DNA of 64,000 nt, taken from NCBI GenBank assembly GCA_024641545.1, contig JAHECW010000005.1:6067-70066 (forward strand). Direction: 5' to 3'. Source of the DNA: Acidobacteriota bacterium (GTDB lineage: Bacteria; Acidobacteriota; Thermoanaerobaculia; Thermoanaerobaculales; Sulfomarinibacteraceae). Of this stretch, positions 4,099 through 20,613 are shown in pieces (the first letter of the stretch is position 1; each line of letters opens with the position of its first letter). The notes beneath the pieces are model-generated. The model saw only the letters and a list, made by a program, of their open reading frames with translations. It did not search any database and was not told the origin of the DNA. A program made the translations under genes and the position numbers.

Positions 4099-4105
4099 GA
4101 AGACC

Positions 4106-5500: not shown

Positions 5501-5544
5501 GGGAATCCCTTCGGCGCAGCGGGCTGTCGTACCACCCATCGGTA

Positions 5545-5562: not shown

Positions 5563-5590
5563 ACCCGAGAATTTTCATGAAACCATTTGT

Positions 5591-5603
5591 TATCAATAAT
5601 TTA
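5591..5603. promoter_or_regulatory. IHF-like bending site between the sigma-54 promoter and the divergent activator gene
   Basis: TATCAATAATTTA fits WATCAANNNNTTR. It lies in the only strongly AT-rich patch of the 5563-5706 intergenic region, ~30-40 bp upstream of the -24 element. Confidence 0.25.
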
Positions 5604-5706
5604 TTAGTGAGTCTGAGAGAAATTTCCGCTTTCGTAATGTCGCGAAATTGGAACTGATGTCTCGAAGGTATTGTAAATATGGAACACTCGATGGATAATC
5701 GGCAAC

Positions 5707-7044
5707 ATGACACACAGGATCGATCCCCGCTATGGCAGCCTGATCTTCGACAACATTCCGCACGGGATCTTCACCGTCGACGCCGAACGGCGAATCACCT
5801 CCTTCAACCGCGCCGCCGAGGAAATCACGGGCTGGTCCCAGGAGGAGGCTCTCGGTCGTCCGTGCACGTCGATCTTCAACTCCAACCACTGCGCCGGCCG
5901 CTGCTTCCTCTTCAACAGCATCGAGCGCGGCGAGCCCCACCGCGACTGCGAGGTCCACATCATCAAGCGAAACGGCACCGAGATCTCGGTCGCGGTGAGC
6001 ACCGCGAGCCTGACGAGTGATGACGGCGAGGTCATCGGCGGGATCGAAATGTTCCGCGACCTCACCGAGGTCAATACCCTCCGGCGGGAACTCGAGGGGT
6101 CCTACCAGATCGGCGATATCGTCTCCAAGAGCGCCGCCATGAAGGGTGTCCGCGATCTCCTTCCGCTCGTTGCCCGCAGCGACAGCACCGTGCTCATCGA
6201 AGGCGAGCCCGGCACCGGCAAAGAACTGGTTGCACGAGCAATCCACAACATGGGTCCCAGGCGGGAGGGCCCGTTTGTCGGGGTCAACTGCGGCGCCCTG
6301 CCGGAATCGCTCGTCGAGTCCGAGCTCTTCGGCCACGTCCGCGGCGCTTTCACCGACGCAAAAAGGGACAAGCCCGGCCGTTTCGCCGCCGCCCAGGGGG
6401 GAACCCTCCTCCTCGACGAGATCGGCGACATCTCGGCCGCGGTGCAGGTCAAACTCCTTCGGGTGCTCCAGGAACGCGAGTACGTGCCTCTCGGATCCTC
6501 GGAGCCCGTCAAGGCCGATGTCAGGATTCTCGCCGCCACCAACCGTGATCTGTCACACGAGGCGATGAACGGCCGCTTCCGCCAGGATCTCTATTTTCGC
6601 CTCAACGTGGTTCGGATCGTGCTGCCGCCGCTGCGTTCCCGGTGGGAGGACATCCCGCTCCTGGTGCAACACTTCATCGAGCGCTTCAACAACCTCCAGG
6701 GGCGCCGGATCTGCGGCATCTCCGAACGCGCCATGACAACCCTCGCGGGTCACTCCTTCCCGGGCAACGTACGCGAACTCGAAAACGCCATCGAACACGC
6801 TTTCGTGGTGTGCGCCGGCAACACCATACGCCGCGAAGATCTGCCGCCGCACATCCGCGGCGAGGCCGCCGTCCCGCCGGAGGCATCCCGGGAATCTGCC
6901 GGCGGTCCGCTCGACGCGGCCGAGGCCGCGGCCATTCGTGACGCTCTCAGGCGCTATTCCAACAACCGAACCGAGACCGCCCGGGGACTGGGCATCTCGC
7001 GGAATACGCTTTGGCGGAAGATGAAGAAATACCGGATACCATGA
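5707..7044 (+). CDS. Sigma-54-dependent transcriptional activator (PAS - AAA+ - Fis-type HTH; no receiver domain)
   Basis: N-terminal PAS (IPHGIFTVDAERRITSFNRAAEEITGW). Walker A GEPGTGKE, GAFTDA loop, LLLDEIGD, PGNVRELEN. C-terminal HTH ETARGLGISRNTLWRKMKKY. Confidence 0.9.
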   Translation: MTHRIDPRYGSLIFDNIPHGIFTVDAERRITSFNRAAEEITGWSQEEALGRPCTSIFNSNHCAGRCFLFNSIERGEPHRDCEVHIIKRNGTEISVAVSTASLTSDDGEVIGGIEMFRDLTEVNTLRRELEGSYQIGDIVSKSAAMKGVRDLLPLVARSDSTVLIEGEPGTGKELVARAIHNMGPRREGPFVGVNCGALPESLVESELFGHVRGAFTDAKRDKPGRFAAAQGGTLLLDEIGDISAAVQVKLLRVLQEREYVPLGSSEPVKADVRILAATNRDLSHEAMNGRFRQDLYFRLNVVRIVLPPLRSRWEDIPLLVQHFIERFNNLQGRRICGISERAMTTLAGHSFPGNVRELENAIEHAFVVCAGNTIRREDLPPHIRGEAAVPPEASRESAGGPLDAAEAAAIRDALRRYSNNRTETARGLGISRNTLWRKMKKYRIP

Positions 7045-7129
7045 TCGATCACGTTCACGTTCCCGGTCGCGGCCTTTTCGGGATCGGAAGCGGGATCGAA
7101 GGTGACAAAGCTCCGAACTCAAAAGGAAC

Positions 7130-7149
7130 GGCCCGCCGATCGGCGGGCC
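7130..7149. terminator. Bidirectional hairpin between convergent genes
   Basis: Perfect 20-nt palindrome GGCCCGCCGATCGGCGGGCC (8-bp GC stem, 4-nt loop). T-rich tract follows on the minus strand (GTTCCTTTTGAG) and a weaker one on the plus strand (GCTGCTGTTCTGATTC). Confidence 0.6.
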
Positions 7150-7177
7150 GCTGCTGTTCTGATTCGATCGTTCGGGC

Positions 7178-8782
7178 CTAGTGCCATTCCCAATCGATAA
7201 ATCCCGGCTTGACGTCGACCATGGCGTTGACGATGAGCTCCACCAGACCGCCGTAGTAGATCCCGGCCTTCTCGAATGCATCGTAGTAGGTGATGATGTC
7301 GCGGATCTGGCCCTTGCAGTTGGAGCACGGCGCGCAGACGTACTTCATGTGCGACGGATCCATGGACTCGTCCTGGAAGGCATTGAGGATCTGGCGGAAT
7401 TTCCGCCGCCCGGTCATCCGATGGCGCCAATCCTTGAAATTGTGGCCCGACATGATGGCGAAGCCCGAACCGCCGCCGCAGCAGTAGTTCTCGACCCCGT
7501 GCGGCGCCATTTCGCGGAAGCGGCCCTCGGGCACCACCGCGTCGATGATCTCGCGCTGCGGCGAGACGATGCCCATGAGGCGCACCAGGTTGCACGGATC
7601 ATGCAGGGTCACCGGGAAGTCGTTGCGGCTCTTGTCGAGCTTGAGCACACCCGATCGGATGATATCGCGCAGGGTCACCATGGAGCTCTCGCGCGGGATG
7701 TTGAGGTCGCCGGTGAGCACCTTGTCGGCGATGACCGTGAGGGCTTTGTGGGCGTGGCCGCACTCACCGAGGACGATCTTTCTGACTCCGAGTTTCTTGG
7801 CGATGGCGGCGTGCCGCACCGCGACCCGCGCGAACTGGACGTCGTCGTACCAGACCCCGTAGTTGATCCCGTCGTAGCCGATGGCATCGGACGACAGGGT
7901 CCAGCTGAGGCCGGCCGCTTCGAAGACCGTGGCGAAGGCGCCGGGGTTCTCGGGCCAGGCCATGATCTCACCGGCATTGTGGATGAGGAGGATGTCGGCG
8001 CCGACCTTGTCGAACGGCGTCTCGATGGTGATGCCGGTGCGCTCCGCGGTGTCTTCGTCGATGAACTCGATGTTGTCCTTGACGATCATCGGGGTCATAC
8101 CGGTGGATGAACCGACCCTGAGCTGAAGCACGGACCCGTCGTCGTGGATCTCCTTGGGAACGATCCCCATCTCCATGCTCGCGATCTTCCGGATCTCGCG
8201 CGACAGCAGCGCGTTGTCGGCGCCGATGGGACAGGTCTGGGCGCAGCGGCGGCAGAGGTTGCAGCGGTAGCTCAACTCGATGAGCCGGGCCACCGTCTCC
8301 CAGTTGAGATCGATGTCGCCGTGCAGCGAAGGCGAGGCCTTCTTGACGTACTTGAAGTAGATCCGGCGCAGGATTTCGGAACGATAGACGGGTCGGTAGA
8401 GTTCGTTCTCACCGCTTTCCTGGAAGATCGGGCAGGCGTCGGAGCAGGTGTGGCACTTGGCGCAGTGCTCCATCGACATCTCGAAGGGCTGGAGGAACGT
8501 CCAGTTGTCGTCGACGCTGAAGAGCTTCTCGAGACCGCTGAGGAAGCCGTTGACCAGCTTGTCTTCCTCTTCCTTGGTCTTCGGTTTCTCGATATTGACC
8601 GCGATGGTGTCGTCGAGAACGACGTACTTTTCGCGGGCGGCGTCGGAGAGCTGGGCGAACTCGGGCTCTTCGTCGATCTTGTCAAAGGGGGGCGGCAACG
8701 GGATCTGTTCGTACTGGTTGATCTGGGCGAGGGGTTCGCCCGGATTCTTCCCCATGTCCTTGACGCTGTTGGGCTGTTTCAT
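7178..8782 (-). CDS. Second DsrK/HdrD-like Fe-S protein with CCG domain
   Basis: CAKCHTCSDACP and CNLCRRCAQTCP ferredoxin motifs. LHDPCNLVR ... NYCCGGGSG ... CAPCSNCK CCG signature. ATG overlaps the upstream stop (ATGA). Confidence 0.85.
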   Translation of the reverse strand: MKQPNSVKDMGKNPGEPLAQINQYEQIPLPPPFDKIDEEPEFAQLSDAAREKYVVLDDTIAVNIEKPKTKEEEDKLVNGFLSGLEKLFSVDDNWTFLQPFEMSMEHCAKCHTCSDACPIFQESGENELYRPVYRSEILRRIYFKYVKKASPSLHGDIDLNWETVARLIELSYRCNLCRRCAQTCPIGADNALLSREIRKIASMEMGIVPKEIHDDGSVLQLRVGSSTGMTPMIVKDNIEFIDEDTAERTGITIETPFDKVGADILLIHNAGEIMAWPENPGAFATVFEAAGLSWTLSSDAIGYDGINYGVWYDDVQFARVAVRHAAIAKKLGVRKIVLGECGHAHKALTVIADKVLTGDLNIPRESSMVTLRDIIRSGVLKLDKSRNDFPVTLHDPCNLVRLMGIVSPQREIIDAVVPEGRFREMAPHGVENYCCGGGSGFAIMSGHNFKDWRHRMTGRRKFRQILNAFQDESMDPSHMKYVCAPCSNCKGQIRDIITYYDAFEKAGIYYGGLVELIVNAMVDVKPGFIDWEWH

Positions 8783-9714
8783 TTGGTCTGGTCCTCCAAG
8801 GTCACGTCAAGCCAGCTTTTCTTACCGTCGGCTCCGATGTGCGGCGCCGACCAGGTCACCGGCCTCGAGAGGAGTTCCTGGATGGTCCCCTCCTGCCGGC
8901 CGCCGGCCAGGTTCGGCTCATCCGACCAGCGGATGGAGTGGTAGGCGAAGTACTTGCCGATGAAATGCGACATATGGGTCGTCGGGATGTAAGCGGTGAG
9001 CAGCGCGAGCAGCACCACCGACAGAGTCAACAGCAGGCCGGCCGGCCCGGCTCCGACCGGTGCGAGGTCGAAGGTCACCAGATTGGTGATGAAGGTGGTG
9101 ACCATGGAGAAATCTCGGTCGTAGACGACAAGAGACACCAACGAGACTCCGAAGGCGGCGATGAAGAAGACGAGGTTGAACAGATCGGCCGGCGCCGTGT
9201 AGTCGCGGAGGGCGCGGCTGCGGCGGCGCATGAAGAGCCCGATGGCGCCGATGATCCCCAAAACCAGCCCTGCCCCACCGAGGAATGGAGCCACGAGGTT
9301 GACGATCTTGGCCACGGGTGCCGCAATGTTCTCCGGAAGATAGCCGACAACCAACCCGCCGGCGAGCATGAGCGCGGTCACGCCGCCCACCAGGTAGAGT
9401 CCGAAGTGAAACGGAAAGGAGCGGGTCCAGAGCTTCTTGTTGTGCTCTCTCAGCGCAACCAGAAAGAGGATCTCCGGCACCATGACCTTGAGCTCGCCGA
9501 AGAGCGAGACCTCGCGTTTCTTGGTCCACCACTCGGTGTCTTCGAGATAGGACCCACCGTACGCGGCCTTTCCACCGCCCTCGTGCGCGACGGGATAGAG
9601 TTCCCACCGCACGTGCATCGGCATCTTCGACCACATCATGAATCGGGCGATGCACGCGATGAGAAAGAAGACGAGGCCGAGGTAGGCGACCACGTACGCG
9701 AAAGTAGTCATCAT
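8779..9714 (-). CDS. Second NarI/DsrM/HmeC-like membrane cytochrome b subunit
   Basis: Polytopic membrane protein with the typical N-terminal stretch MPMHVRWELYPVAHEGGGKAAYGGSYLED...FPFHFGLY. The track start at 9720 is GTG; the ATG at 9714 or 9711 follows a GAGGTG RBS, so the start is uncertain by a few codons. Confidence 0.75.
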   Translation of the reverse strand: MMTTFAYVVAYLGLVFFLIACIARFMMWSKMPMHVRWELYPVAHEGGGKAAYGGSYLEDTEWWTKKREVSLFGELKVMVPEILFLVALREHNKKLWTRSFPFHFGLYLVGGVTALMLAGGLVVGYLPENIAAPVAKIVNLVAPFLGGAGLVLGIIGAIGLFMRRRSRALRDYTAPADLFNLVFFIAAFGVSLVSLVVYDRDFSMVTTFITNLVTFDLAPVGAGPAGLLLTLSVVLLALLTAYIPTTHMSHFIGKYFAYHSIRWSDEPNLAGGRQEGTIQELLSRPVTWSAPHIGADGKKSWLDVTLEDQTK

Positions 9715-10240
9715 TATCACCTCATGGTTATTTTACAGTATTGTGTTACGTCATGCGATAACAGCTTCAACGCGCTCATTCTACTGAAGACGACCGCTGA
9801 TTCTCAAGATTTCGCTCAGCAACGGTTGACCTTCGGATGGGCCCGCGCGCCACTCCACCGATGAACCACTGCCGACGGGACCACATCTCCCGCGATTCGA
9901 GCAATTGCCATTCCTGAGTGAAACGCTCAGCATTGACTCCACCACCGGAGAAGATCGCTCAATCCGTCGCAAGATCAAGTGTTTCGCGATCAAGAAGCTC
10001 CGCGCCGAATCGACTTGTGGTGCAGGTCCGGATCACCGCTGTCGACATGTCGCAATCCTGGAACACCCTCACCCTCCGTTACGGCGAGGTGACACCGGCA
10101 CGTGTATTTGTGCTCAGTTTTGAGATTGAAGCTCGCTGCTGCCGACTTCGAAACCACCCACGAAGGCGCCGGCAGTGTCCGCAGTCTTCGACTCCTGATC
10201 GCGCACAGGCAAGTGGTTTCTTTCACCGCGAGAAGTGCCG

Positions 10241-10268
10241 CGCATCCCTTCGGACTGACAGGGATGCG
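10241..10268 (-). terminator. Hairpin just downstream of the histidine-kinase stop
   Basis: CGCATCCCT-(10 nt)-AGGGATGCG, a 9-bp stem, 14 nt after the stop at 10282. No clear T-run follows, so intrinsic-terminator function is uncertain. Confidence 0.3.
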
Positions 10269-10281
10269 ACACCGAAGGGGA

Positions 10282-11736
10282 TCAGCGGTCGATGATCTCC
10301 GGCGGAATGTGGTGCAACGGAAGCACCATCGTCACCGTCGTTCCGAGTCCCACCGCGCTCTCGAGCGAGACCTTGCCGCCGTGCATCTGCGCTGCTTCCC
10401 GCACGATCGAGAGCCCGAGCCCGGTGCCTTCGGCTTGGGCGTGCTTGGCGTTGGGGGCGCGGACGAACTCGAGAAAGACATCATCCTGGAGCTCCTTCGG
10501 AATTCCGATTCCGTCGTCCGCGACCACTACCATCGCGTGGGATCGATCGATGCCGAGGGCCACGGTGACGGTGCCGCCCCCCGGCTTCGAGTACTTGATC
10601 GCGTTGTGGATCAGATTCTCGAAGGCGTAGACGAGATCCGGAGGCACCGCCCAGTCGAGGACTGCGGCGCCCTCGTTGATGAAGTGCGGAATCAGCTCCA
10701 CATTCGCCTCGCGGGCATAAGGGTCGAGCGCATCGAAGAGGTCGGCCAGAATCTGATTGATGCTGACCTTCCGGGTCCACGGCGCCCGGGCCCGGCCCTC
10801 GCGCATCTTGGCCAGCTCCAGGAGATCGTTGACGATGGCGAGGAGCGAGTCCACCCGCGCCGCGGTTCCCTCCAGCAGCCGGCGACCATCGGCAGACCCC
10901 GGTTCGACGTAACCGTCGATCAGGACCTGAATCGACGTCTTGATGGTTCCCAGCGGTGATCGGAGTTGGTGGGCGGAAATCCTCATGTAGTGCGATTTGC
11001 GACGCTCCACCTGGGCCTGTTCTTCGAGGGCGCGGCGGAGCTCTGTGGAGGTCTCGTGGAGTTCGATGTTGCGCGCCTTGAACCGGCTGGTCACCGAATC
11101 CGTGAGATAGACCACACCAAAGACCAAGACCACGAGCATGGCCATGCTGAGGACGCAGCTGCCGACCGTCGACCGGCCGCCCACAACCGTGGCGACCTGT
11201 GCGAGCACACCCAGGTGCTCGAGGGCAAAGAGACTTGCCGCCGCCCCGGCCACCGCAAAGCCGAGTCCGTACATGGTTCGGCCGTCGATCATGATCGTCC
11301 CGATGGCCATGTGGAAAACCACGAACGGCAGGACCGGGCTGGAGCATCCTCCGGTGAAGTGAACCGTGAAGAAGAGCGCCGCCAGATCGGTCACCATCTG
11401 CAGGATGGCGAGCCCCCTGAGCGCGGCGTAGTCCTTTTCGGGACCGAGCCTCGCCCGGAGCACATGGATGAAGACGACGTTGTAGAGGGCGACCAGCACG
11501 GCGACAACGGCCAGGCTCGGGGAGGTCGAGGGCATGGAGAAATACGGCCCCAGCACCGAAGCCAAAGCGAGGCCGAGGGCGGCCAACCAGCGCAGCTTGC
11601 AGAACCAGAGCAGTCGCTCGTGGAGTTCCCAGGAAAAAATGTAACTGAATCGGTTCTTTTCAGTCCCACTCCGGTGCCGCACCGCAGAACCCGGTGCGCC
11701 CTGGGTCTGCGGACGCGGTCCGGTCGATTCTCCCAT
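10282..11736 (-). CDS. Membrane sensor histidine kinase
   Basis: About six N-terminal hydrophobic helices. HisKA H-box ISAHQLRSPL. HATPase motifs (NLIHNAIKYS, DDGIGIP, GTGLGLSIV). Confidence 0.85.
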   Translation of the reverse strand: MGESTGPRPQTQGAPGSAVRHRSGTEKNRFSYIFSWELHERLLWFCKLRWLAALGLALASVLGPYFSMPSTSPSLAVVAVLVALYNVVFIHVLRARLGPEKDYAALRGLAILQMVTDLAALFFTVHFTGGCSSPVLPFVVFHMAIGTIMIDGRTMYGLGFAVAGAAASLFALEHLGVLAQVATVVGGRSTVGSCVLSMAMLVVLVFGVVYLTDSVTSRFKARNIELHETSTELRRALEEQAQVERRKSHYMRISAHQLRSPLGTIKTSIQVLIDGYVEPGSADGRRLLEGTAARVDSLLAIVNDLLELAKMREGRARAPWTRKVSINQILADLFDALDPYAREANVELIPHFINEGAAVLDWAVPPDLVYAFENLIHNAIKYSKPGGGTVTVALGIDRSHAMVVVADDGIGIPKELQDDVFLEFVRAPNAKHAQAEGTGLGLSIVREAAQMHGGKVSLESAVGLGTTVTMVLPLHHIPPEIIDR

Positions 11737-11739
11737 TGG

Positions 11740-12138
11740 TCAGGGCTTCGCTTCGCCCGGTCCGACGAGCTCACCGACCTTGCGCATGAGATCTTCGGGC
11801 GAGATCGGCTTTTCGAGGTAGTGGTCCGCCGGGACCCACGACTCGTCGACCTCCAGTCGCAGGTTGTAGACGCGATCGACTCCGGTGAGGATGATGATCG
11901 GGATGAGCGCGGTCGCGTCGTTGTTCCGAAGGGAACGGGCGACATCGAACCCCTCGGACATGTGGTCCATCATGACGTCGAGAACAATCAAATCCGGCGG
12001 ATCGTCGTCAACGACCGCCAAGGCTTCGGTGCCGTTGGCAACGGTCCGCACGTGATACCGCGTCCCGAGCACCGCGGCCACCGATTGAACGAAAACCGGA
12101 TCGTCGTCCGCAACCAGCACCGTCGGTCGCGGCATCAT
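11740..12138 (-). CDS. Stand-alone receiver-domain response regulator (CheY-like)
   Basis: 132 aa. VLVADDDP ... DLIVLDVMMD ... ILTG ... YLEKP receiver pattern with no output domain. GGAGTGG RBS. 4-nt gap to the kinase gene. Confidence 0.85.
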   Translation of the reverse strand: MMPRPTVLVADDDPVFVQSVAAVLGTRYHVRTVANGTEALAVVDDDPPDLIVLDVMMDHMSEGFDVARSLRNNDATALIPIIILTGVDRVYNLRLEVDESWVPADHYLEKPISPEDLMRKVGELVGPGEAKP

Positions 12139-12260: not shown

Positions 12261-13895
12261 TCATCCGCAGGAGCCGGTGGGACAACCCCGACCGGAGAGG
12301 TGGGCTTCATATTCTTTCCGGAAATTGCCCAGGCCGGTGATGACGGAACCGGTGGCATTGCGACCGAGTTCGCACAGGGACGTCTGTCGAATGTGCCGGC
12401 AGAGCCGTTCCAGACGCTTCAGGTCGGACGCCTCTGCCTGACCCGAACCGATGCGATCGAGGAGATTGAGGACCACCCTGGTCCCGATCCGGCAGGGCGG
12501 ACACGTCCCGCACGACTCTTCGGCGCAGAAGGCAACAAAATAGCGAGCGAGAGCCACCGGACAGCTGCCCGGGCCGAGCACCACGACGCTCCCCGAACCG
12601 AGATTGGCCTCGTGGTTGCGGAGCGACCCGAAATCAACGGTGGTGTCGAACTGGGAGCGAGACAGGGTCACACCACCGGGACCCCCGAGGTGGGCTCCCA
12701 GAACCCCGTCGTCGGCGCCCGCGCCGGCGATCTCCTCAACGATCCTGGCAAGGCTCGTCCCGATCGGCACCTCGGCCACCCCGGGTCTGGGGACGGCGCC
12801 CGACACGCTGACCACCTTGGTGCCGGACGGACGGACATCGGCGCCGAGCCGCTCGGGCAGCACGATCAACGGGATGTTGGCCAGCGTCTCGAGACCGTTG
12901 ATCAAGGTCGGGCAACCCCACAGGCCGCTGACCGCCGGGAACGGCGGACGGGGCCTGGCGACCGCGCGACGCCCCTGGAGCGCGTTGAGCAACGAGGTTT
13001 CCTCGCCACCCATGGACGCCCCGGCGTTCTCGCAGATCTCGATCGAGAAATCGAACCCCGAACCGAGAATCCTCGAACCGAGAAAACCCCGATTCCGAGC
13101 CTGCTCTACGGCCCGCTCGGCGCGGGCGACGGCCAGGCGGTGCTCCGATCGGAGAAACAGCCGACCCTCCCTGGCGCCCACCGCATAGCCCGCGATGGCC
13201 ATCCCTTCGACAACACTGTGCGGGTCTCCTTCGACGAGGGTGCGATCCGCGGTCGGTCCCGGGTCGCCCCCTTCGCCGTTGCCGACGACATATCGGATCT
13301 GTCCCGGCGTGTCGGCGACCAGCGCCCACTTCAACCCGACGGGGAACCCCGCCCCGCTCCGTTCCTGGAGACCGGATCGCTTGACCAGATCGATGATCTT
13401 CACCGGATCGAGATCGAGGAGCGATCGCCGCAGCGCATCATAGGCACCGAGCGTAACCGCGTGTTCCACATCCTCGGGATCGACGACGCCGCACCGGGCC
13501 AGCACCTGACGATCCTGGTTCGCGAAGAACGGATTGTCCGCCAGTCCCCGGTATCGCTGACCGCTCGCGGGTTCGAGATACAGCAATCGGTCGATGACCT
13601 CGGATCGACCGACCGTGCGATCGAGGATCTCGTCCACATCCTCCTGCCTGACCCGACAGTAGAGCACGTCCAGTCCTGGAAGGTGGACCAGCGGACCCTG
13701 ACTGCAGAACCCACGGCACCCGACCACGCACGGCTTCGACTCGATCGTGACCTTTGATCCGGAGCCGGCCGCGCCCCCTTGCAGCGCTTCAATCACCTCG
13801 AGGGCACCGAGGGCGATGCAGCCGCTGCCGCCGCAGACACGAATCGCCACCGGAGTCCGGTCCGGAGCCTGCGAGGCGGTCGTCGGCGCCGTCAA
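12261..13895 (-). CDS. NuoF/HoxF/HndC-like NADH-binding FMN/Fe-S subunit with N-terminal thioredoxin-like [2Fe-2S] domain
   Basis: RVCGGSGC...CRGFCSQGP (2Fe-2S), GAGFPVGLKW (NADH site), GGEETSLLNAL (FMN site), ESCGTCPPCRIG (N3 cluster). Start trimmed from 14015 to the TTG at 13895. That TTG overlaps the NuoE-like stop (TTGA) and follows GGAGGA at a 6-nt spacing. A GTG at 13850 is an alternative. Confidence 0.85.
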   Translation of the reverse strand: MTAPTTASQAPDRTPVAIRVCGGSGCIALGALEVIEALQGGAAGSGSKVTIESKPCVVGCRGFCSQGPLVHLPGLDVLYCRVRQEDVDEILDRTVGRSEVIDRLLYLEPASGQRYRGLADNPFFANQDRQVLARCGVVDPEDVEHAVTLGAYDALRRSLLDLDPVKIIDLVKRSGLQERSGAGFPVGLKWALVADTPGQIRYVVGNGEGGDPGPTADRTLVEGDPHSVVEGMAIAGYAVGAREGRLFLRSEHRLAVARAERAVEQARNRGFLGSRILGSGFDFSIEICENAGASMGGEETSLLNALQGRRAVARPRPPFPAVSGLWGCPTLINGLETLANIPLIVLPERLGADVRPSGTKVVSVSGAVPRPGVAEVPIGTSLARIVEEIAGAGADDGVLGAHLGGPGGVTLSRSQFDTTVDFGSLRNHEANLGSGSVVVLGPGSCPVALARYFVAFCAEESCGTCPPCRIGTRVVLNLLDRIGSGQAEASDLKRLERLCRHIRQTSLCELGRNATGSVITGLGNFRKEYEAHLSGRGCPTGSCG

Positions 13896-14449
13896 CGCCG
13901 GTCCTCCGGCCGACGATCGGGGCCGAGGAGCTCGGTCACGAGATCGCCGGCGGCGGCTTCTGTCTCCACGCCGCGAACCCGGTCCTCGATCCGAATCACC
14001 GGCGCGAGGCCGCACACGGCGAGACAGCGCTCCTGGCGCACGGCGAGGGTCGGCTCGCCGGCGATCGGCGGCCGTTCAGCCACCGCTCGGTTGATCCGGC
14101 GCAGCACCCCTTCCCCTCCACACAGGAAACAGCCGGGTCCGGTGCAGACATCGACGATGAGCCGGCCGCGCCGCTCGGAACTGAGTTGCGGGTAGTAGCT
14201 CACAACCCCGGCAACCTGGGCGGGTGAGAGGCCGAACCGGTCCGCCACCAACTCCTGCACTCTCCACGAGACCCTGTCAAAGACCTGCTGGAGACCCAAG
14301 AGCACTCGAATCAGCCCCTCCCGTCCGCCGGGCGCCTGCGCCAGCAACTCGTCGACCAACTCGATCACCGCCGGATCGAGGGCCTCCGCACCATCGCCGC
14401 CTTCGGTGCCGAAGAAACCGGAGTCGGTGATGTCGTCGGTAATGCTCAT
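13892..14449 (-). CDS. NuoE-like thioredoxin-fold [2Fe-2S] subunit
   Basis: VVSYYPQL...VDVCTGPGCFLCGG...CLAVCGLAPV signature. The ATG at 14449 (MSITDD...) lies 2 nt after the upstream stop; the track start at 14476 is a GTG inside the upstream gene. Confidence 0.8.
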   Translation of the reverse strand: MSITDDITDSGFFGTEGGDGAEALDPAVIELVDELLAQAPGGREGLIRVLLGLQQVFDRVSWRVQELVADRFGLSPAQVAGVVSYYPQLSSERRGRLIVDVCTGPGCFLCGGEGVLRRINRAVAERPPIAGEPTLAVRQERCLAVCGLAPVIRIEDRVRGVETEAAAGDLVTELLGPDRRPEDRR

Positions 14450-14451
14450 CG

Positions 14452-16962
14452 TCAGGCCTTTCTCACCTTGACCCACAGGACCTCGCCGCCCTCTTCAAAG
14501 AGGGTCGAAGCTCCATAGCGGCTTCCAACCCAGGGGACGATTACGGTTCCCTGGAGAACCGTTCGATCGAGCCGGGCACGCAGCAGAACCTCTCCCTTGT
14601 CGCTCGACACCGCGACGACTTCACCGCGAGCCACGCCGAGGGCGCGCGCATCGGCCGGGTTGATCCGAACCGCCACCGTCGGCGACAGTTCCTGGAGCAG
14701 CGCGCTGCGCATGGTGACCGAGCCCGAGTGAAAGAGCTGCGGCGCGGCATCGAGCAGAAAACCCGATGCGCCGGCCGCCGCGCGGGGTGGTGAAACCGGA
14801 GTCAGCCGCCGGGGCTGAGATCGTCGCCACCTCCATCCCACCACCCGATCCAGCTCGCGGAAGAGGGCTTCGCCCGTCGGGAGCGACGAGCCCATCCGGC
14901 GTGCGAGTTCGACCAGGATCACCGTATCCGACCTGACTCCGGCAGGGGGACCGAGCGCTCGCCGCAACGGCCGTCGAATACCGTCGGCGCCCACCGTCGT
15001 TCCTTCGCGTTCGCTGAGAATGGCCGCCGGAAGGACCACGTCCGCTCGTTCGGCGGTGCTCGTTCGAAACGCATCGACGACAACCGAGAAACCCGCACCC
15101 TCCACGACCCGCCGAGGATCTTCGCCGCGCGGAAGCAGGTCGATGGGATCAACGCCGACGAGAAGGAGACCCGATGCGGCGTCGGGACCGGCCTTGACCC
15201 AGTCCGAGACCGACCAACCCGCCTCCGAGATGGTCGCGCGCCCGGTGAGATCCTCGAGCTCGACCGCCTGGTTGATGAGCCGATGGCCGGGCAGGAGACG
15301 CGGGTGGAGGCCGACATCGACCAGCCCCTGGACATTGGACCGACCGCCCAGAACGAGCAAACCCGCATCGCTTCCGCACAACGCCGTCAGTGTCGCGGCC
15401 ACCCGCGCCACCGCCGCCTCGTTCCCGGGCACACCGGAGCCGGTCCCCATGATCATCACCGGCCGGCGTGCGGCCGCCAACCGGGAGGCCAGACCGTCAA
15501 TCCGCTCAGCCGTGAGCCCGGTCGCCCGGGCGACCGATTCCGGCGAGAACGCCTCGATGGATCGACGCCAGGCGTCATACCCCGGCAGGTGTTCGATCCT
15601 CCTCGAACGAGGGCCATCGAGAGCCAACAACCGGACCGCCACGGCAACCAGGAGATCGCTGACCGACCCGGGGGCCGGCCGAAGCACATCGGCCGCGTGC
15701 CGATCGAGGCCGCCCGCAACCGGGCTTACCGCGATCACCGGCACCCCCCGTTGGACCGCCGCCTGCACCAGTTCGGTCTTGACCAGCGGGTGACCCCGAC
15801 TCGGATCACTCCCGAAGACCAGTACGAGATCCGCCAGCCTGATCTCGTCAAAACCCGCAGTCGAACGCGGTCGGTCGAAGACCTCCCAGACCCCGTCCAC
15901 CAGCGCCGGCGCTCCGCCGACCGGCGCCATGTCGACGTGCGGACTCTTGAGCACCTCGCGGGCCAGCGCCTGCAGGAGGTAGCCGTCCTCACAGCTCAGC
16001 CGGCCGCCCCCGGCCACCATCACCGGGCCGCGTCCCGCGGCACGTCGAAGGCCGTCCGCCGCCGACGCCAGGCCTTCCTCCCAGCTCACCTCGACCAGCG
16101 TTCCGTCCTTGCGGACCAACGGCGCTCTCAGGCGTTCGGGGTTCGCCACGACATCGAGACCGAGCCACCCCTTGACGCAGAGCTTGCCGCGATTGGGTGA
16201 ACCACCGACCGCTGAGGTCACGCGTTGGAGCCGGCCTTGGTGGTTCTCCACCGACACCTCGCAACCGCAGCAACAGAAGGAGCAGGTGGTCTTGACCCGC
16301 GCTCGTTGCCAGACCGGGATCGGCGACGCGTACGGCTGCGCCACCAGGGCCCCCACCGGACACGCATTGACGCACTGGCCGCAGAACTCGCAGTCCAGCG
16401 GCCGGTCGAGAAAGGTCGCAACGTGGGTTCCCATACCCCGCCCCAGAAAAGCCAGGGCCGCGACCCCCTGAACCTCCTCACACAGGCGGACGCAGCGACC
16501 GCAGACAATGCACTTCCCAGGGTCGCGAATGATCACCGGGGAGGCTTCGTCTCGCGACGCCGGTTTGAAGTCGAACGGCAGAATGTCGTCCGGGATCCCG
16601 ATCTCGTGGACCAGATCCTGGAGGCGGCAGTCCGCGTTGCGTTCGCAGACCGGGCACTCCATTCGATGATTGAGCACGAGCAACTGGAGTTGCTGTTGCC
16701 GGGCTTCGACCACCGCCGGGCTGTCGGTCAGGATGACCATCCCGTCCTGGATCCGCGTCGAGCACGCCGGGACCAGGGCCCCCGAGGCGTCCGCCCGCTC
16801 GACCACACACATCCTGCAGCCGCCGTACGGCGTCAAACGATCATCGTGGCACAGGGTCGGCAGCCGGATTCCGAGTTCCGAGAGCACGTGGATGAGCAAC
16901 CGGTGCCTGGCCGTTCGCACCGGCCGCCCATCGACCGTGAGGGATACGGGTAGGGTTTCCAT
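14452..16962 (-). CDS. NuoG-like Fe-S / molybdopterin-oxidoreductase-fold subunit (apparently non-catalytic MopB domain)
   Basis: N-terminal 2Fe-2S (LCHDDRLTPYGGCRMCVVE). CPVCERNADCRLQD and CIVCGRCVRLCEE...CEFCGQCVNACP clusters. MopB cluster CSFCCCGC...LCVKG. The region aligned to the formate-dehydrogenase active site reads LKSPHVDMAPVGGAP, with no Cys or in-frame TGA. Confidence 0.8.
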   Translation of the reverse strand: METLPVSLTVDGRPVRTARHRLLIHVLSELGIRLPTLCHDDRLTPYGGCRMCVVERADASGALVPACSTRIQDGMVILTDSPAVVEARQQQLQLLVLNHRMECPVCERNADCRLQDLVHEIGIPDDILPFDFKPASRDEASPVIIRDPGKCIVCGRCVRLCEEVQGVAALAFLGRGMGTHVATFLDRPLDCEFCGQCVNACPVGALVAQPYASPIPVWQRARVKTTCSFCCCGCEVSVENHQGRLQRVTSAVGGSPNRGKLCVKGWLGLDVVANPERLRAPLVRKDGTLVEVSWEEGLASAADGLRRAAGRGPVMVAGGGRLSCEDGYLLQALAREVLKSPHVDMAPVGGAPALVDGVWEVFDRPRSTAGFDEIRLADLVLVFGSDPSRGHPLVKTELVQAAVQRGVPVIAVSPVAGGLDRHAADVLRPAPGSVSDLLVAVAVRLLALDGPRSRRIEHLPGYDAWRRSIEAFSPESVARATGLTAERIDGLASRLAAARRPVMIMGTGSGVPGNEAAVARVAATLTALCGSDAGLLVLGGRSNVQGLVDVGLHPRLLPGHRLINQAVELEDLTGRATISEAGWSVSDWVKAGPDAASGLLLVGVDPIDLLPRGEDPRRVVEGAGFSVVVDAFRTSTAERADVVLPAAILSEREGTTVGADGIRRPLRRALGPPAGVRSDTVILVELARRMGSSLPTGEALFRELDRVVGWRWRRSQPRRLTPVSPPRAAAGASGFLLDAAPQLFHSGSVTMRSALLQELSPTVAVRINPADARALGVARGEVVAVSSDKGEVLLRARLDRTVLQGTVIVPWVGSRYGASTLFEEGGEVLWVKVRKA

Positions 16963-16969
16963 CCCGCCC

Positions 16970-19204
16970 TTACTCCGGCGCCGGAGGAGCCAACCGGCGG
17001 ATGGACCACTTTGATCTGAGTCGGTTGGCGAGCCGCATGACGATGCCGGGTTCGGGGTCGAGGGCGTGTTCGACCGAACTCGGCATCATCAGCAAATCGA
17101 GAAGGTGGATCGTCTCGCGGCCGGCGTCACGCAGCGCGCTTCGGCAGCCGATGCAGTAGGTCACCATGGGCAACCGGGTCTGGCCGGACGCGCGGGCGGC
17201 GATCTTCGAGAAGAGCTCCGGATCGACATTTTCGATCTTGCCGCCCGAACCGCAACACCTGGTCCGCTCGTGCGAGTATTCGGTCTCGACCACCTCGGCG
17301 CCGCTGGTTCTGACCAGGGTTCGGATCGCCGCATGGACCTCGGGATTGTGCCGGCTCCGACACGGGTCGTGAACCGCGAACCGTAGATCATCGTATCGCT
17401 GGATCGGGTCCCAGGTCTCCGCCAGCACCTCCCAAACCGAGCTCACCTGAACTTGTGGAAACCACTCGGTCAGCATCTCCTGACACTGGGGACAGGCAGC
17501 GATGAGCTCCTCGGCACCGAGGTCATCCATGGCAGCGGCAATGTGCTCCCGCGCCCGCGCACCTTCTGCTTCCAAACCGAGAATCTCGGCGGGCACGCCG
17601 CAGCAGTACATCAGAACGCCGATCCTCGGATCCTGGCGCAGGAGGTGTTCATAAAGTACCCGGGTCTGTTTCGGCGAGGTGGCGGGCAGCTCGCACCCGG
17701 TGAAGAAGAGACGCCGGGCACGGCGACGGCCGGGCGCGGCGGCCGCGAGCGAAAAGGTGTTCGACAGCCCGGCCCGGAGTTCACGCTGAACCTGGCGGTG
17801 CTCCGGGAGCGGCGCCAACCCCTCGCGAACCGCCTCCCGGCGCGCCGCGAGCATGAGCTCACCGGTATCCAACCCGACCGGACACAAAGTGGCGCAGAGA
17901 CCGCAGATGTTGCACGAGTAGATCGTCTCCACGTGGTCATCGATACCCGCGGCCACCCGCCGAGCCAGATCGCGCGGCGAGTTGCAGTGGCGGGCGAGAA
18001 ACTCGCAGTCGCGAACACAACGATCGCAGGTGCAATCGAGGCAGCGTTCACCTTCGCCGCGAACCTCCCTCTCGGTCATCGGCGGCGCTGCCGGCTGTAG
18101 GAGCAACGGCGTTCGCTGACGGCGGCGGCGCTCGCTCTCATCGATGCCGAGCTTCCAAAGGAGCGGCGGCGGCTGCGTCGCCGAACCCGGATATTCCAAC
18201 GCTTCACCGTCGATGAAACGACGCGCTGATTCGGCCGCCCGCCGACCGTGGGCCATCGCGTCGATGACCGACGTCGGCCCACTGATGGCGTCGCCGGCGG
18301 CGAAAAGCCCCTCCTCACCGGTTTCGCAGGTCACCGGATCGGCCTTGATGGTGTCCCGAGCGCTGGCCTCGACGGCCCCGGCGCCCGATCGCAGGAGTTC
18401 CTGCCCGCCGGCGAACCCCAGCGTCAAGAGCACCACGTCGTGGCGAGCCCGAAGCTCGGCCAGGCTGAGGTCCCTTCCCAGTTGGACGCCCGTTCGGACA
18501 TCGATCTCGAGCGCCGCGATGATGGAGAGGTCGCGCGCACGTACCCTTGCAGGGAGCCGCCACTGAGGTATCCGGGTGGCCAGGCAACCACCGAGCTGCG
18601 GCTCCCGGTCGAAGATCGACACCTGGAATCCGGCACGCCGGAGATCGTGGGCGGCCATCAATCCCGCGGGGCCGGCGCCGACCACGGCGGCGCGCTGCGA
18701 ACGAGACCCGGCCATGGTCAGGATGTGCTCGGGCTCGCCCTCCTCCGACTCGGCCAGGAAACGCTTGATGTCACGGATCCTGATGGCCCGGTCGAGTTCG
18801 AGTCGCTTGCAGTGAAGCTCACACGGCTGGGTGCAGACGTAGCCGAGGATTCCGGGGAAGGGCAGCTTTTCGCGAACGGTCTGCAGCGCTTCGCGAAATC
18901 TCCCGGCGCGGGCAAGCTGGACATAGAGATGGGCGTCGACCCGGATCGGGCACCGTGCCTCACAGTTGGCTGGACCTTCGCCACGACAGCGGTCGAGCAT
19001 TCTGCCGGCGAGCTCGATCACCCGCGTGCGCATGGCGGTGGGCGAGTCGGACCCGGATCCGCCCGGGCTGGTGCCGCGAACGCCGTACCCGTCACCGGCG
19101 CGTAACATGACCTGCACCATCGGTGTTACCCAACCGACGCGACAAACGGGCGACGGAGAGCGGAGAGGCGCAGCCGCCCGGTACGGTTTCCCATGCCAAA
19201 GCAC
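16970..19204 (-). CDS. Fusion protein: GltD-type N-terminal Fe-S domain + FAD-binding fold + HdrD/GlpC-like 2x[4Fe-4S] + two CCG domains
   Basis: CEARCP...YVCTQPCELHCKR (GltD/DPD domain-II-like). VVGAGPAGLMAAHDL...GGCL and FAAGDA (FAD). CLDCTCDRCVRDCEF and CNICGLCATLCPVG. CCG motifs FFTGCE...MYCCGVPAE and VHDPCRSRH...RCCGSGGK...YCIGC. The true start is uncertain: 19204 is GTG, and ATG candidates lie at 19120, 19108 and 19033. Confidence 0.75.
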   Translation of the reverse strand: MLWHGKPYRAAAPLRSPSPVCRVGWVTPMVQVMLRAGDGYGVRGTSPGGSGSDSPTAMRTRVIELAGRMLDRCRGEGPANCEARCPIRVDAHLYVQLARAGRFREALQTVREKLPFPGILGYVCTQPCELHCKRLELDRAIRIRDIKRFLAESEEGEPEHILTMAGSRSQRAAVVGAGPAGLMAAHDLRRAGFQVSIFDREPQLGGCLATRIPQWRLPARVRARDLSIIAALEIDVRTGVQLGRDLSLAELRARHDVVLLTLGFAGGQELLRSGAGAVEASARDTIKADPVTCETGEEGLFAAGDAISGPTSVIDAMAHGRRAAESARRFIDGEALEYPGSATQPPPLLWKLGIDESERRRRQRTPLLLQPAAPPMTEREVRGEGERCLDCTCDRCVRDCEFLARHCNSPRDLARRVAAGIDDHVETIYSCNICGLCATLCPVGLDTGELMLAARREAVREGLAPLPEHRQVQRELRAGLSNTFSLAAAAPGRRRARRLFFTGCELPATSPKQTRVLYEHLLRQDPRIGVLMYCCGVPAEILGLEAEGARAREHIAAAMDDLGAEELIAACPQCQEMLTEWFPQVQVSSVWEVLAETWDPIQRYDDLRFAVHDPCRSRHNPEVHAAIRTLVRTSGAEVVETEYSHERTRCCGSGGKIENVDPELFSKIAARASGQTRLPMVTYCIGCRSALRDAGRETIHLLDLLMMPSSVEHALDPEPGIVMRLANRLRSKWSIRRLAPPAPE

Positions 19205-19361: not shown

Positions 19362-19378
19362 TGCAAGTTGTGTGCCGA
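19362..19378 (-). promoter_or_regulatory. Sigma-54 (-24/-12) promoter upstream of the NuoEFG-like / CCG-fusion operon
   Basis: The minus strand reads TCGGCACACAACTTGCA. This is cGGCAC-N5-TTGCA with exact spacing and one mismatch to consensus. It lies in the gap between the DsbA-like stop (19408) and the fusion gene. Confidence 0.55.
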
Positions 19379-19407: not shown

Positions 19408-20541
19408 CTAGGGTTCTTCTCCCTTGGCGAGCCGCGCGATGAGGCCCGGGAACCACTCCGAATCGGGCATCTGGATCATCCAGCCGTTGACGAAATAGGT
19501 CGGCGTGGCGTTGACCCCCATCTGGTGGCCGAGGGCGAGCTGGGAGTGGACCGCCGCCAGCGAGACGTTCCGCAGATAGCAGCCACGAAAGAGGGTTTCA
19601 TCAAGGCCTTGACCGGCGACGAAATCCAACGACGTCTGCGTCACCAGGCCGACCTCCATCTCACGCTGGAGATCGTAGAAGAGCTCCTTGAATCCGATGA
19701 CCTGCTGAGTGTCGAGCTCGCCGACACACCATGTCGCCGACGAGGCGCGAAAGGCCCACGGGTGGATGGAGGTCAGCGGAAAGCTGACCATCCCGTGCCG
19801 CACCGCTCCGCCGTTCTCTTCCATCACTGCTTTGACCATCGGCCACTTGGCCTTGCAGGCCGGGCATTCGAGATCGGAAAACTCGACGATCTCCACCTTC
19901 GCCCCATCGCCGCCCGGGTGGTCCCAGACGACAAATGCGTTGGCGCCGAACTGCGCCCTGCGAATGGCCACCGGATCACCGTCCAACGGCATTCCGGAGG
20001 CCATGATGAGGTAGTTTCCATCCGAGGTCACGGCGACGGGTTTTGGAAACTCGCCATACCCGGTGTCCACAATCAGGTTGAAGGGGATGAGGGCGCCGGA
20101 TGTCGCTCCTTCCGGCACATCCCAACTCAACCTGACCTTCATGTTCATGTTGCGCTGAAGGACTTCCGGCAGGAAGCCTTCGAGGAACGGACGCAGCGAT
20201 CGCGGCGCCGTACCGGTTTGTTGAAAGGGGAGTTGGCCGACGCTGCCGAGATAGGCGAGACCGGTCACCTCGTCGATGACGACGGAAGGCTCGCCGGTCA
20301 GGATCTTGTTCTCGCAGGTGCGGGAAACCCTCACCGTCCGGTACGAACCCGACGGTGTCGGGGTGCGTTGATCGGAGACGATCCTGAATGACGAGTCCGG
20401 ATACCAGGGGATGGACCGCTCGACAAAACGCAGAACGACCGGATCCTGGGCGATGAGCGGATCATCGGCGGCATCCACGACCACGCCGCCGAACACCACG
20501 ATCATCGCCAGCACACCGGTCGAGACCTTATTGAACTTCAT
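19408..20541 (-). CDS. Secreted DsbA-family thiol:disulfide oxidoreductase with an extra N-terminal domain
   Basis: Start trimmed to MKFNKVSTGVLAMIVVFGG (signal-like), preceded by GGGAGG; the longer track ORF overlaps recA. Thioredoxin-fold active site FSDLECPACK. Confidence 0.75.
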   Translation of the reverse strand: MKFNKVSTGVLAMIVVFGGVVVDAADDPLIAQDPVVLRFVERSIPWYPDSSFRIVSDQRTPTPSGSYRTVRVSRTCENKILTGEPSVVIDEVTGLAYLGSVGQLPFQQTGTAPRSLRPFLEGFLPEVLQRNMNMKVRLSWDVPEGATSGALIPFNLIVDTGYGEFPKPVAVTSDGNYLIMASGMPLDGDPVAIRRAQFGANAFVVWDHPGGDGAKVEIVEFSDLECPACKAKWPMVKAVMEENGGAVRHGMVSFPLTSIHPWAFRASSATWCVGELDTQQVIGFKELFYDLQREMEVGLVTQTSLDFVAGQGLDETLFRGCYLRNVSLAAVHSQLALGHQMGVNATPTYFVNGWMIQMPDSEWFPGLIARLAKGEEP

Positions 20542-20561: not shown

Positions 20562-20613
20562 AACCAACGCGAGCCGCGACCGATTCCGGCCGCGGCTCCG
20601 GATGACGTTGGTT
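20562..20613 (-). terminator. Compound hairpin downstream of recA
   Basis: AACCAACG..GAGCCGCG-(12 nt)-CGCGGCTC..CGTTGGTT, two nested 8-bp stems starting 6 nt after the recA stop. Only a weak T-tract (GTTGGTTTGG) follows, so it may be a terminator, attenuator or RNA stabiliser. Confidence 0.4.

Follow-up and report, generated by a model that had tools for sequence, protein, structure and literature searches.

Where would electrons taken from NADH come to rest in an operon that joins a complex I-like NADH module to an iron-sulfur flavoprotein with Hdr-type CCG domains? The question is raised by positions 12261-19204 of a 64,000-nucleotide (64-kb) stretch of contig JAHECW010000005.1 from an Acidobacteriota bacterium, which in its full length is called the window here. 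The minus strand of this region is filled by four tightly packed, co-oriented open reading frames (ORFs), which we call FUS, G, E and F. A first-pass annotation, made from the sequence alone, took them for a NuoEFG-like NADH module co-transcribed with a fusion protein that ends in a disulfide-reducing CCG site. Our analysis finds four genes that are real, conserved and uncharacterised, whose products are best explained as the subunits of a cytoplasmic iron-sulfur flavoprotein complex that belongs to the HydABC/NfnABC ('Bfu') lineage. We tentatively favour, short of being convinced, the reading that this enzyme is linked to NADH and reduces an acceptor of the disulfide or persulfide type, and our best guess is that it is coupled to an adjacent DsrMK-like module. 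The four genes are as follows.

16970..19036 (likely start; the longest ORF extends to a GTG at 19204), minus strand: FUS, a fusion of GltD/NfnA-type Fe-S, flavin adenine dinucleotide (FAD), dicluster and two CCG domains
14452..16962, minus strand: G, a NuoG/FdsA/BfuA-like subunit, by Pfam and by sequence match to the PDB
13892..14449 (longest ORF to 14476), minus strand: E, a NuoE/HydC (BfuC)-like [2Fe-2S] subunit
12261..13895, from a TTG start (longest ORF to 14015), minus strand: F, a NuoF/HydB (BfuB)-like subunit

Pfam confirms the domain content. The four-gene architecture first read from the letters holds, as do its junctions: 7 nt (GGGCGGG) separate FUS from G, 2 nt separate G from E, and E and F overlap by TTGA. 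FUS probably starts at the ATG at 19036, which is also the start of the 99%-identical homologue P0001 and gives 688 amino acids (744 as the longest ORF); other relatives have their start some 22 codons before it. The base composition (GC about 0.67, high GC3) is consistent with real genes. The closest relatives, with FUS 70-88% identical, form what we call the window clade (13 scored loci from 11 distinct genomes). Pairwise comparison with relatives in this identity range gave ratios of nonsynonymous to synonymous substitution (dN/dS) of 0.11-0.23 for FUS, 0.13-0.21 for G, 0.12-0.37 for E and 0.17-0.28 for F, where values that were nan or above 1 were ignored as artefacts of offsets in high-scoring segment pairs and start codons. 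All four genes are under purifying selection. The idea that E and F are pseudogenes was considered and rejected, as their dN/dS lies within 0.12-0.37 and their ORFs are intact.

The first-pass annotation had proposed a search for the same gene order in other genomes, and that order turned out to be conserved almost exclusively within Acidobacteriota. More than 490 homologues of FUS were found at E<=1e-10, and the best 120 are almost all full-length fusions of the same architecture, apart from three N-terminally truncated fragments. Scanning one genome per species yielded 77 FUS loci, about 55 of which belong to the direct FUS family (at least 44% identity). This direct family is nearly confined to Acidobacteriota (Thermoanaerobaculia/-ales, Holophagae and Vicinamibacterales), with a few bins labelled Methylomirabilota, Eisenbacteria or Fibrobacteraceae. 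In all, some 50 genomes were seen to have the order FUS-G-E-F. By tblastn, G directly follows FUS in every locus with enough downstream sequence (52/58 family loci), and all four genes are present in about 40 family loci.

The fusion protein is where the electron path would end. Pfam divides FUS into Fer4_20 (4e-16), an FAD Rossmann domain, Fer4_17 and CCG in two stretches (9e-14), which map as follows.

18737..19009, minus strand: N-terminal Fe-S domain (Pfam Fer4_20), aligning to NfnA/StnA residues ~92-190
18197..18700, minus strand: FAD-binding domain (GAGPAG), without the ~140-residue NAD(P)H Rossmann subdomain of GltD/NfnA
17867..18061, minus strand: HdrC-like dicluster domain (Pfam Fer4_17; CxxCxCxxCxxxC and CxxCxxCxxxCP)
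17117..17719, minus strand: double CCG module (Pfam CCG, two stretches)

The N-terminal half of FUS is most similar to the GltD-like part of NfnA/StnA (9bov_A, 4e-50; 9n5u_A, 8e-49; 8oh5_C, 2e-41), with true GltD at about 1e-31. Its Fer4_20 domain has six invariant Cys (C17, C25, C29, C68, C72 and C76) and, likewise invariant, Glu73; how many clusters this domain holds, and of which type, is something that we infer. FUS residues 13-208 align to residues 92-287 of 9bov_A and residues 209-344 to 432-574, so that the NAD(P)H-binding Rossmann domain of about 140 residues that is present in 9bov_A, 9n5u_A and 4ylf_B is absent from FUS. The segment that bridges the gap measures 38-42 residues in 51/51 members of the FUS family. 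Since the FAD domain lacks its NAD(P)H subdomain, the flavin would be an internal cofactor and not a second pyridine-nucleotide site. An AlphaFold2 (AF2) model of the whole of FUS (pLDDT 92, pTM 0.83) has NfnABC and StnABC as its best fold matches in the PDB. We also observed a cysteine in the FAD motif IGGCL (Cys151 of the 688-residue protein, Cys207 of the 744-residue ORF, at about 18584-18586) that is kept in 50/51 members, at a position that holds Met, Leu or Ala in GltD/NfnA-type relatives; judging from the motif, it could lie near the flavin.

In the C-terminal half, the nine dicluster Cys are invariant in 51 family sequences, and so are the ten Cys of the CCG module, which form the full Hdr-type 5+5 set (CXnCCGXmCXXC): C448, C478, C479, C515 and C518 in CCG1, and C559, C594, C595, C628 and C631 in CCG2. 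Loss of these residues had been named in advance as a finding that would count against a catalytic CCG site, and they prove to be fully conserved. Both motifs keep the CC pair, the first CxxC reads CP[QDR]C without a His, and there is no EtfD-type Thr or His substitution, which makes the cysteine pattern of FUS HdrB-like. The best NCBIfam match of this half is TfrB (74 bits).

A wider view of the fusion supports the direction of electron flow. An exhaustive search among representative sequences returned 1,681 clusters at E<=1e-30, which fall into three groups: GltD-HdrD fusions of about 840 amino acids that retain the NAD(P)H domain (P0125-P0131), fusions of about 770 amino acids without it, which correspond to NCBIfam NF045663, and the family of the window, at about 710 amino acids. 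The retention of the NAD(P)H domain by the ~840-residue sister fusions suggests that the route NAD(P)H to FAD to Fe-S to CCG was the ancestral logic of the fusion, and at the level of sequence these proteins support electron flow from NAD(P)H to the CCG site. P0132 lacks the domain while the otherwise similar P0131 has it, so its loss was probably recurrent. FUS scores 506.2 bits against NF045663 over profile positions 9-661 of 759, below the 530-bit cutoff. That family, named 'pyridine nucleotide-disulfide oxidoreductase/dicluster-binding protein' (diclust_near_Sec), shares the architecture of FUS, including an FAD domain without the NAD(P)H subdomain, but its members are only about 30% identical to FUS, carry about 100 extra C-terminal residues and have GGGLSG in place of GAGPAG; unlike FUS, those in A. 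woodii and D. tiedjei have no NuoEFG-like neighbours. Our literature search found no paper that describes either NF045663 or the FUS-G-E-F operon, and the latter is not covered by a paper on sulfur cycling in Acidobacteriota (PMC8528874) or by one on ANME (PMC9012536).

The G protein contains the domains Fer2_4, NADH-G_4Fe-4S_3, Fer4_Nqo3, Molybdop_Fe4S4, Molybdopterin (1.5e-26) and Molydop_binding. Its ligand motifs predict a [2Fe-2S] cluster, a His-ligated [4Fe-4S] cluster, two ferredoxin-type [4Fe-4S] clusters and a MopB-type [4Fe-4S] cluster, and all of these ligands are invariant in 47 sequences. The best match of G in the PDB is FdsA (2.5e-83), followed by NuoG. Nevertheless the active site of formate dehydrogenase (FDH) is gone, as the first-pass annotation had supposed: VCHSPT of FdsA aligns to VGGAPA in G, which replaces Cys-His by Gly-Gly, LRGQNNVQG aligns to LGGRSNVQG, which replaces the catalytic Arg by Gly, and none of the 47 G sequences has Cys, Sec or His at the FdsA active-site position. 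The absence of these residues indicates that G is a cluster-bearing scaffold, like NuoG.

As for the subunits that would take up the electrons, E matches 2Fe-2S_thioredx (4e-22), with its four Cys conserved in 39-40 of 40 sequences, and F matches Complex1_51K (7e-32), SLBB and NADH_4Fe-4S (2e-27). An N-terminal thioredoxin-like 2Fe-2S domain of F scores 22.1 bits, just under the cutoff; it has four conserved [2Fe-2S] Cys (VCGGSGC ... VGCRGFC), and its alignment to HydB starts at residue ~25. Among solved structures F is closest to T. maritima HydB (2e-134), then to A. mobile NiFe-Bfu subunit B and to NfnB/StnB (1e-120 to 1e-114), compared with about 1e-80 for NuoF/Nqo1 and about 1e-75 for FdsB, and it is therefore of the HydB/BfuB type rather than the NuoF type. 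The earlier label of a NuoEFG-like NADH module is thus right in outline, but by sequence the module belongs with HydABC/NfnABC.

How well the proteins fit the Bfu family can be judged against the portion of its 2022 classification (PMC9304861) used here. There, a Bfu enzyme has a conserved BfuBC core and a BfuA subunit, by which the electrons of a third substrate are delivered. BfuB binds flavin mononucleotide (FMN) and holds a [2Fe-2S] cluster near its N-terminus, a cluster of the N3 type and, at the C-terminal end, two [4Fe-4S] clusters (B3/B4), with an unusual site that precedes the C-terminus; the domain of B3/B4 is missing from non-bifurcating homologues. BfuC has one [2Fe-2S] cluster and BfuA the clusters A1-A5. 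The classes named in that portion are FeFe, NiFe, Nfn, Fdh, F420, Wor, Bam, Codh, Por, Mbh, Nuo and Rub, with H2, formate, NADPH, F420, aldehydes, CO, pyruvate, quinone and peroxide as third substrates, and no CCG or HdrD class is named in it. The proteins of the window have the N-terminal [2Fe-2S] cysteines of BfuB, the [2Fe-2S] cysteines of BfuC and the ligands for A1-A5 of BfuA. Window F also retains the FMN/NADH fold, the N3-type [4Fe-4S] Cys and the CPxGxC site, although three of its flavin and nucleotide motifs are substituted. What it lacks is the C-terminal 2x[4Fe-4S] domain. Most relatives encode a complete BfuB, with GLRGRGGAGFP, CN[AG]DEGDPGAFMDR, GAGAFVCGEETA, the N3 cysteines and CPxGxC, and in about 30 more distant ones F carries a 60-residue C-terminal extension with eight Cys. 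The last residues of window F are CPTGSCG, and the following gene begins 122 nt after its stop; in 13/13 loci of the window clade the tail has 0-12 residues and no Cys.

By the standard of that classification window F resembles, in its sequence, the non-bifurcating homologues. The loss of the C-terminal clusters together with the remodelled motifs makes bifurcation unlikely in the window clade, and the window enzyme is most likely a non-bifurcating derivative. The bifurcating or confurcating role that the first-pass annotation had left open is therefore improbable here, where F has no ferredoxin-type clusters, and fits the relatives better; since most of these have a complete BfuB, the ancestral enzyme probably also used ferredoxin.

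Among enzymes of known structure, NfnABC/StnABC (PDB 9bov, 9n5u, 8oh5) are the nearest. Like the proteins studied here they combine a HydB-type NuoF-like subunit that has an N-terminal [2Fe-2S] domain, a NuoE-like subunit, a NuoG-like subunit with a MopB remnant and a GltD-type Fe-S/FAD module, and they give the best sequence and fold matches for the N-terminal half of FUS, with F of the HydB/NfnB/StnB type. They differ in that their GltD-like module is fused to the NuoG-like BfuA, whereas here the two are separate genes 7 nt apart, in that FUS no longer has the NADP(H)-binding domain and carries an HdrD-like extension of dicluster and 2xCCG, and in that window F is without the C-terminal 2x[4Fe-4S] domain. 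HdrD/HdrBC, DsrK and TfrB share with FUS a ferredoxin-like dicluster followed by two five-Cys CCG domains; in FUS, however, these are fused to a flavoprotein whose partner is NuoEFG-type and not HdrA, HdrE or DsrM. E and F have the fold of FdsG/FdsB and NuoE/NuoF of FdsABG and NuoEFG, and G is nearest to FdsA and then NuoG, but unlike FdsABG and complex I the system has no Mo active-site residues and no membrane or Q-module genes, and its F is HydB-type. It is thus not categorically new, being a HydABC/NfnABC (Bfu)-type assembly with an Hdr-like CCG module substituted for the NADPH site.

The system to which a disulfide-reducing reading invites comparison is the NADH-dependent FlxABCD-HdrABC of sulfate reducers, whose overall logic the route proposed here, from NADH to an Hdr-type CCG site, would share. 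Flx-Hdr includes an HdrA-type bifurcating flavoprotein, an FlxA-type NAD(P)H/FAD subunit and an MvhD-like subunit. Neither the gene-like ORFs of the window nor the conserved neighbours were found to include an HdrA-type, FlxA-type or MvhD-like gene, and the NADH module here is of the NuoEF/HydBC type, so the claim that the operon is distinct from Flx-Hdr stands and the parallel is functional at best.

We infer from these comparisons that the four proteins would form one complex, with NADH as donor, through which electrons would pass in the following order. F would take a hydride from NADH at FMN, with E alongside, and the electrons would move through the N3-type cluster into G, an FdsA/NuoG-type scaffold that has five clusters but is catalytically inactive. 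The next stations would be the NfnA-type Fe-S domain of FUS and its FAD; the covalent fusion of the GltD-like module to the NuoG-like subunit in NfnA/StnA supports such a contact between FUS and G. In Nfn-type enzymes this FAD reacts with NADP(H). FUS has an HdrD-like module where the domain for NADP(H) was lost, so that electrons would go from the FAD to the HdrC-like dicluster and end at the two Hdr-type CCG clusters. In effect, a NuoEFG/HydABC-type module may have replaced the internal pyridine-nucleotide site of the ancestral fusion. The reaction would most likely be an NADH-driven two-electron reduction of a disulfide, persulfide or polysulfide-type acceptor, possibly one shared with the adjacent DsrMK-like menaquinol module. 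The disulfide substrate is hypothetical; an acceptor of the thiol/disulfide or persulfide type is favoured by the HdrB-like Cys pattern, by the rhodanese and DsrMK-like neighbours and by the ancestral NAD(P)H-CCG fusions.

The genes around the operon in the window are listed here, together with two promoter-like sites.

19408..20541, minus strand: secreted DsbA/Thioredoxin_4-like protein (Trx4) of 377 amino acids with a CPAC motif, upstream of FUS (Pfam)
19363..19377, minus strand: sigma-54-type -24/-12-like site CGGCACACAACTTGC upstream of FUS, one mismatch
11740-12138, minus strand: stand-alone receiver protein (Pfam)
10282-11736, minus strand: histidine kinase with six transmembrane segments (Pfam)
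8779-9720, minus strand: NarI-type membrane protein, DsrM-like (Pfam, NCBIfam)
7178-8782, minus strand: DsrK-like Fe-S/CCG protein (DsrK1; DsrK, 330 bits, below the cutoff of 400)
5677-7041, plus strand: PAS/sigma-54 activator, between two CCG-protein clusters
5547-5561, minus strand: sigma-54-type -24/-12-like site upstream of the second DsrK-like gene, one mismatch
4106-5770, minus strand: second DsrK/HmcF-like CCG protein
3397-4149, minus strand: multi-helix membrane protein of 250 amino acids, no Pfam match
2588-3448, minus strand: Fer4_11 protein
537-2786, minus strand: NrfD-like protein fused to a cytochrome c with seven CxxCH motifs (seven-haem)

The receiver and kinase genes lie directly downstream of FUS-G-E-F in most relatives, including those without E and F, and the genes at 537-5770 appear from their domains to encode an Hmc/DsrKJOP-like transmembrane redox complex. 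Upstream of the Thioredoxin_4 gene lies recA. Counted over 54 non-redundant loci, the recurring neighbours are as follows.

Histidine kinase: 31/54 loci
Receiver protein: 24/54 loci
NarI-like protein, downstream: 20/54 loci
Rhodanese: 19/54 loci
DedA/VTT protein: 19/54 loci
Trx_4 protein, upstream: 18/54 loci

In L001-L003 and about 19 other loci a two-domain rhodanese gene and the DedA/VTT gene sit between the kinase and the NarI-like gene. Both are absent from the window, where the interval 9721-10281 consists of 560 nt without an ORF. Only two strong terminator-like hairpins occur on the minus strand between 7 and 21 kb, at 20571-20598 after recA (12-bp stem) and at 7127-7152 after DsrK1 (11-bp stem); they bracket Trx4, FUS-G-E-F, the receiver and kinase genes and the NarI-like and DsrK-like genes, which suggests one regulatory or transcriptional neighbourhood. 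Sigma-54-like sites are not enriched in the window (41 matches against 47 expected), and the site upstream of FUS is weak evidence, to be taken as a lead only. The gene-like ORFs of the window that were scanned yielded no hydrogenase, no FDH catalytic subunit, no Nuo membrane arm and neither DsrAB nor DsrC; the remaining scanned ORFs are housekeeping genes. Genes for the Q module and membrane arm of complex I (NuoA-D, H-N) are missing both in the window and in the roughly 50 syntenic loci. The first-pass annotation was therefore correct that these partners are missing here, and its concern that orthologues might adjoin hydrogenase or FDH genes did not materialise among the conserved neighbours of the syntenic loci.

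Some further observations concern neighbours and distant homologues in their own right. A signal or anchor sequence lies at the N-terminus of the Thioredoxin_4 protein, which matches the Rcas_1661 thioredoxin-like (seleno)lipoprotein family weakly (42 bits, where the cutoff is 190), and a DedA/VTT gene also lies 3' of a distant FUS-like gene on a Cetobacterium somerae plasmid (L057). The NF045663 genes of Acetobacterium woodii (L083) and Desulfomonile tiedjei (L084) have as neighbours a Mo enzyme of the XDH family, DUF7479, a UbiE-like methyltransferase and a radical SAM protein, and NADPH-type fusions in L059 and L061 adjoin the same pair of methyltransferase and radical SAM genes. This recurring cluster around GltD-HdrD fusions is found in Firmicutes, Desulfobacterota and Chloroflexi, also holds a C_GCAxxG_C_C protein, and its radical SAM protein is of the Zn_ribbon_HMPTM type; it is an uncharacterised system in its own right. 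In a low-GC lineage (L063:789-14236), a stand-alone HdrD-like gene (dicluster and two CCG domains) lies directly upstream of complete BfuC/B/A-like genes, which are followed by EtfB, EtfA, acyl-CoA dehydrogenases and HdrA-like flavoproteins, a combination of CCG and Bfu genes that matches no class named in the portion of the 2022 classification cited above (PMC9304861). No identifiable CCG substrate emerged from the contexts of these distant homologues, with their XDH-like and ETF/acyl-CoA dehydrogenase partners.

Several points weigh against an NADH-linked disulfide reductase. No substrate-specific gene (DsrC/TusE, LbpA or CoM/CoB-type) was found nearby, and much of the wider synteny (recA, Trx4) may be no more than gene order kept within one phylum. 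The CCG half has only marginal similarity to HdrB and HdrC, and its best matches, EtfD and LutA, are not disulfide reductases. In F, GRGGAGF has become ERSGAGF (ER[GSA]G across the window clade), CN[AG]DEGDPGAF has become GNGEGGDPGPT (GNG[ED][AGS] in the clade) and GAGAFVCGEE has become NAGASMGGEE, so that binding of FMN and NADH is not assured. Finally, E and F are lost or degenerate in several loci where FUS and G are intact, which indicates that NADH input is dispensable in some lineages.

The strongest of these is that the CCG module serves as an electron wire, as in EtfD, GlpC, LutA and SdhE, and not as a thiol/disulfide catalyst. The enzyme would then be a soluble NADH (or NADH plus ferredoxin) dehydrogenase that feeds a protein partner or menaquinone, most plausibly by way of the neighbouring NarI/DsrK-like or Hmc-like membrane complexes. 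We consider this somewhat unlikely. In its favour, a separate model of the dicluster and CCG half (pLDDT 83, pTM 0.85) finds its best fold match in M. smegmatis EtfD (PDB 9ojn), with a template modelling (TM) score of 0.61 when scaled to the query, and its next best in a LutA model, with a TM score of 0.65 when scaled to the target. The weak sequence matches of this half to solved proteins are also led by EtfD (3.5e-5), with HdrC at 3e-3 and HdrB at 0.06. In EtfD the CCG clusters relay electrons from electron-transfer flavoprotein (ETF) to menaquinone (PMC13083937). CCG domains by themselves are not diagnostic of disulfide chemistry. A NarI/DsrK-like pair directly follows FUS-G, with or without degenerate E and F, in L041, L046 and L049; the stand-alone HdrD-like gene of L063 stands beside BfuCBA-like and EtfAB genes, and the pairing of NF045663 relatives with XDH-type Mo enzymes suggests that the fusion is a generic electron outlet.

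On the other hand, the clusters of EtfD are non-catalytic because the second Cys of CCG1 is a Thr, which leaves a linear [3Fe-4S] cluster, and because His583 caps the second cluster (PMC13083937), and FUS keeps its ten Hdr-type Cys without either of these closing changes. Mycobacterial EtfD is moreover membrane-anchored and carries haem b, whereas FUS is soluble, with no transmembrane segment or haem domain. The conserved basic C-terminal helix of FUS has a hydrophobic moment (muH) of 0.10-0.14 and is not amphipathic, and monotopic membrane anchoring through this helix, which we considered, is unsupported. DsrK also has its own cytoplasmic CCG site, which would leave the docking mode of FUS puzzling. 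The interpretation given in the first-pass annotation is partly supported: the CCG cysteines and the sister fusions speak for it, and the nearest folds, EtfD and LutA, against its disulfide half.

A second alternative, which we regard as unlikely and as slightly less probable than an electron wire, is that the NuoF-like subunit of the window clade no longer oxidises NADH. FUS and G would be the working unit, fed by ferredoxin or another donor, with E and F as structural or regulatory remnants heading for loss. The three substituted motifs of F are invariant in about 30 canonical relatives, and the C-terminal domain has been lost as well. The dN/dS of E and F is roughly twice that of FUS and G, and F is 41-45% identical where FUS is 52-55% identical. 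In other clades E and F have been lost or have decayed independently: L027 reads FUS-G-RR-HK and L041 reads FUS-G-NarI-DsrK, with the NarI-like gene directly after G and both without E and F, L060 is without F, and L046 and L049 have a badly degenerate F, while G, and FUS where it lies fully on the contig, keep every cluster ligand in all five loci. The lability of E and F makes FUS and G the invariant core. However, the low dN/dS of F and the conservation of its derived motifs across the window clade argue for selection for function, and F retains GGEET, GLKW, the N3 Cys and the Cys of its N-terminal [2Fe-2S] cluster. The Asp-to-Glu and Glu-to-Gly changes are compatible, as sequence changes, with a site that is altered rather than abolished.

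The relatives with a complete BfuB allow a further reading, to which we give little credence at present: they may be Bfu enzymes whose third substrate is an Hdr-type disulfide, of which the window clade is a recently 'de-bifurcated' form. NADH would be the donor at the FMN/Fe-S site; one of its electrons would run downhill by way of G and FUS and arrive at the CCG site, while ferredoxin would receive the other in an uphill step. If this were true, disulfide reduction would be coupled to ferredoxin reduction without HdrA, and the forms before and after the change would be a natural pair with which to find out where in Bfu enzymes bifurcation takes place.

A conventional enzyme out of context (an Nfn/Stn transhydrogenase, an NAD-dependent FDH, an NAD-reducing hydrogenase or a complex I fragment) is highly improbable in spite of the best PDB matches to NfnABC/StnABC for FUS and F and to FdsA for G, because the NADP(H)-binding domain is deleted in 51/51 FUS members, for which the transhydrogenase was rejected, and the Cys, His and Arg residues of FdsA are absent in 47/47 G sequences, with no hydrogenase, FDH or Nuo membrane genes in the window or among the conserved neighbours of the syntenic loci, for which a cryptic FDH or hydrogenase was rejected.

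The Bfu-type enzymes (HydABC/NfnABC) are a large family whose bifurcation mechanism is debated. A conserved operon for an Nfn-type enzyme with an Hdr-like double-CCG module instead of its NADPH site would add a thiol/disulfide, or other CCG-type, branch to this family, and its natural variants (with a full BfuB, with a BfuB that lacks the ferredoxin domain, or with no E and F at all) could show which clusters are needed for bifurcation. For now FUS-G-E-F is a well-defined and testable target. In the Acidobacteriota that abound in soil and sediment, the operon would link the NADH and ferredoxin pools to the adjacent DsrMK-like and rhodanese genes.

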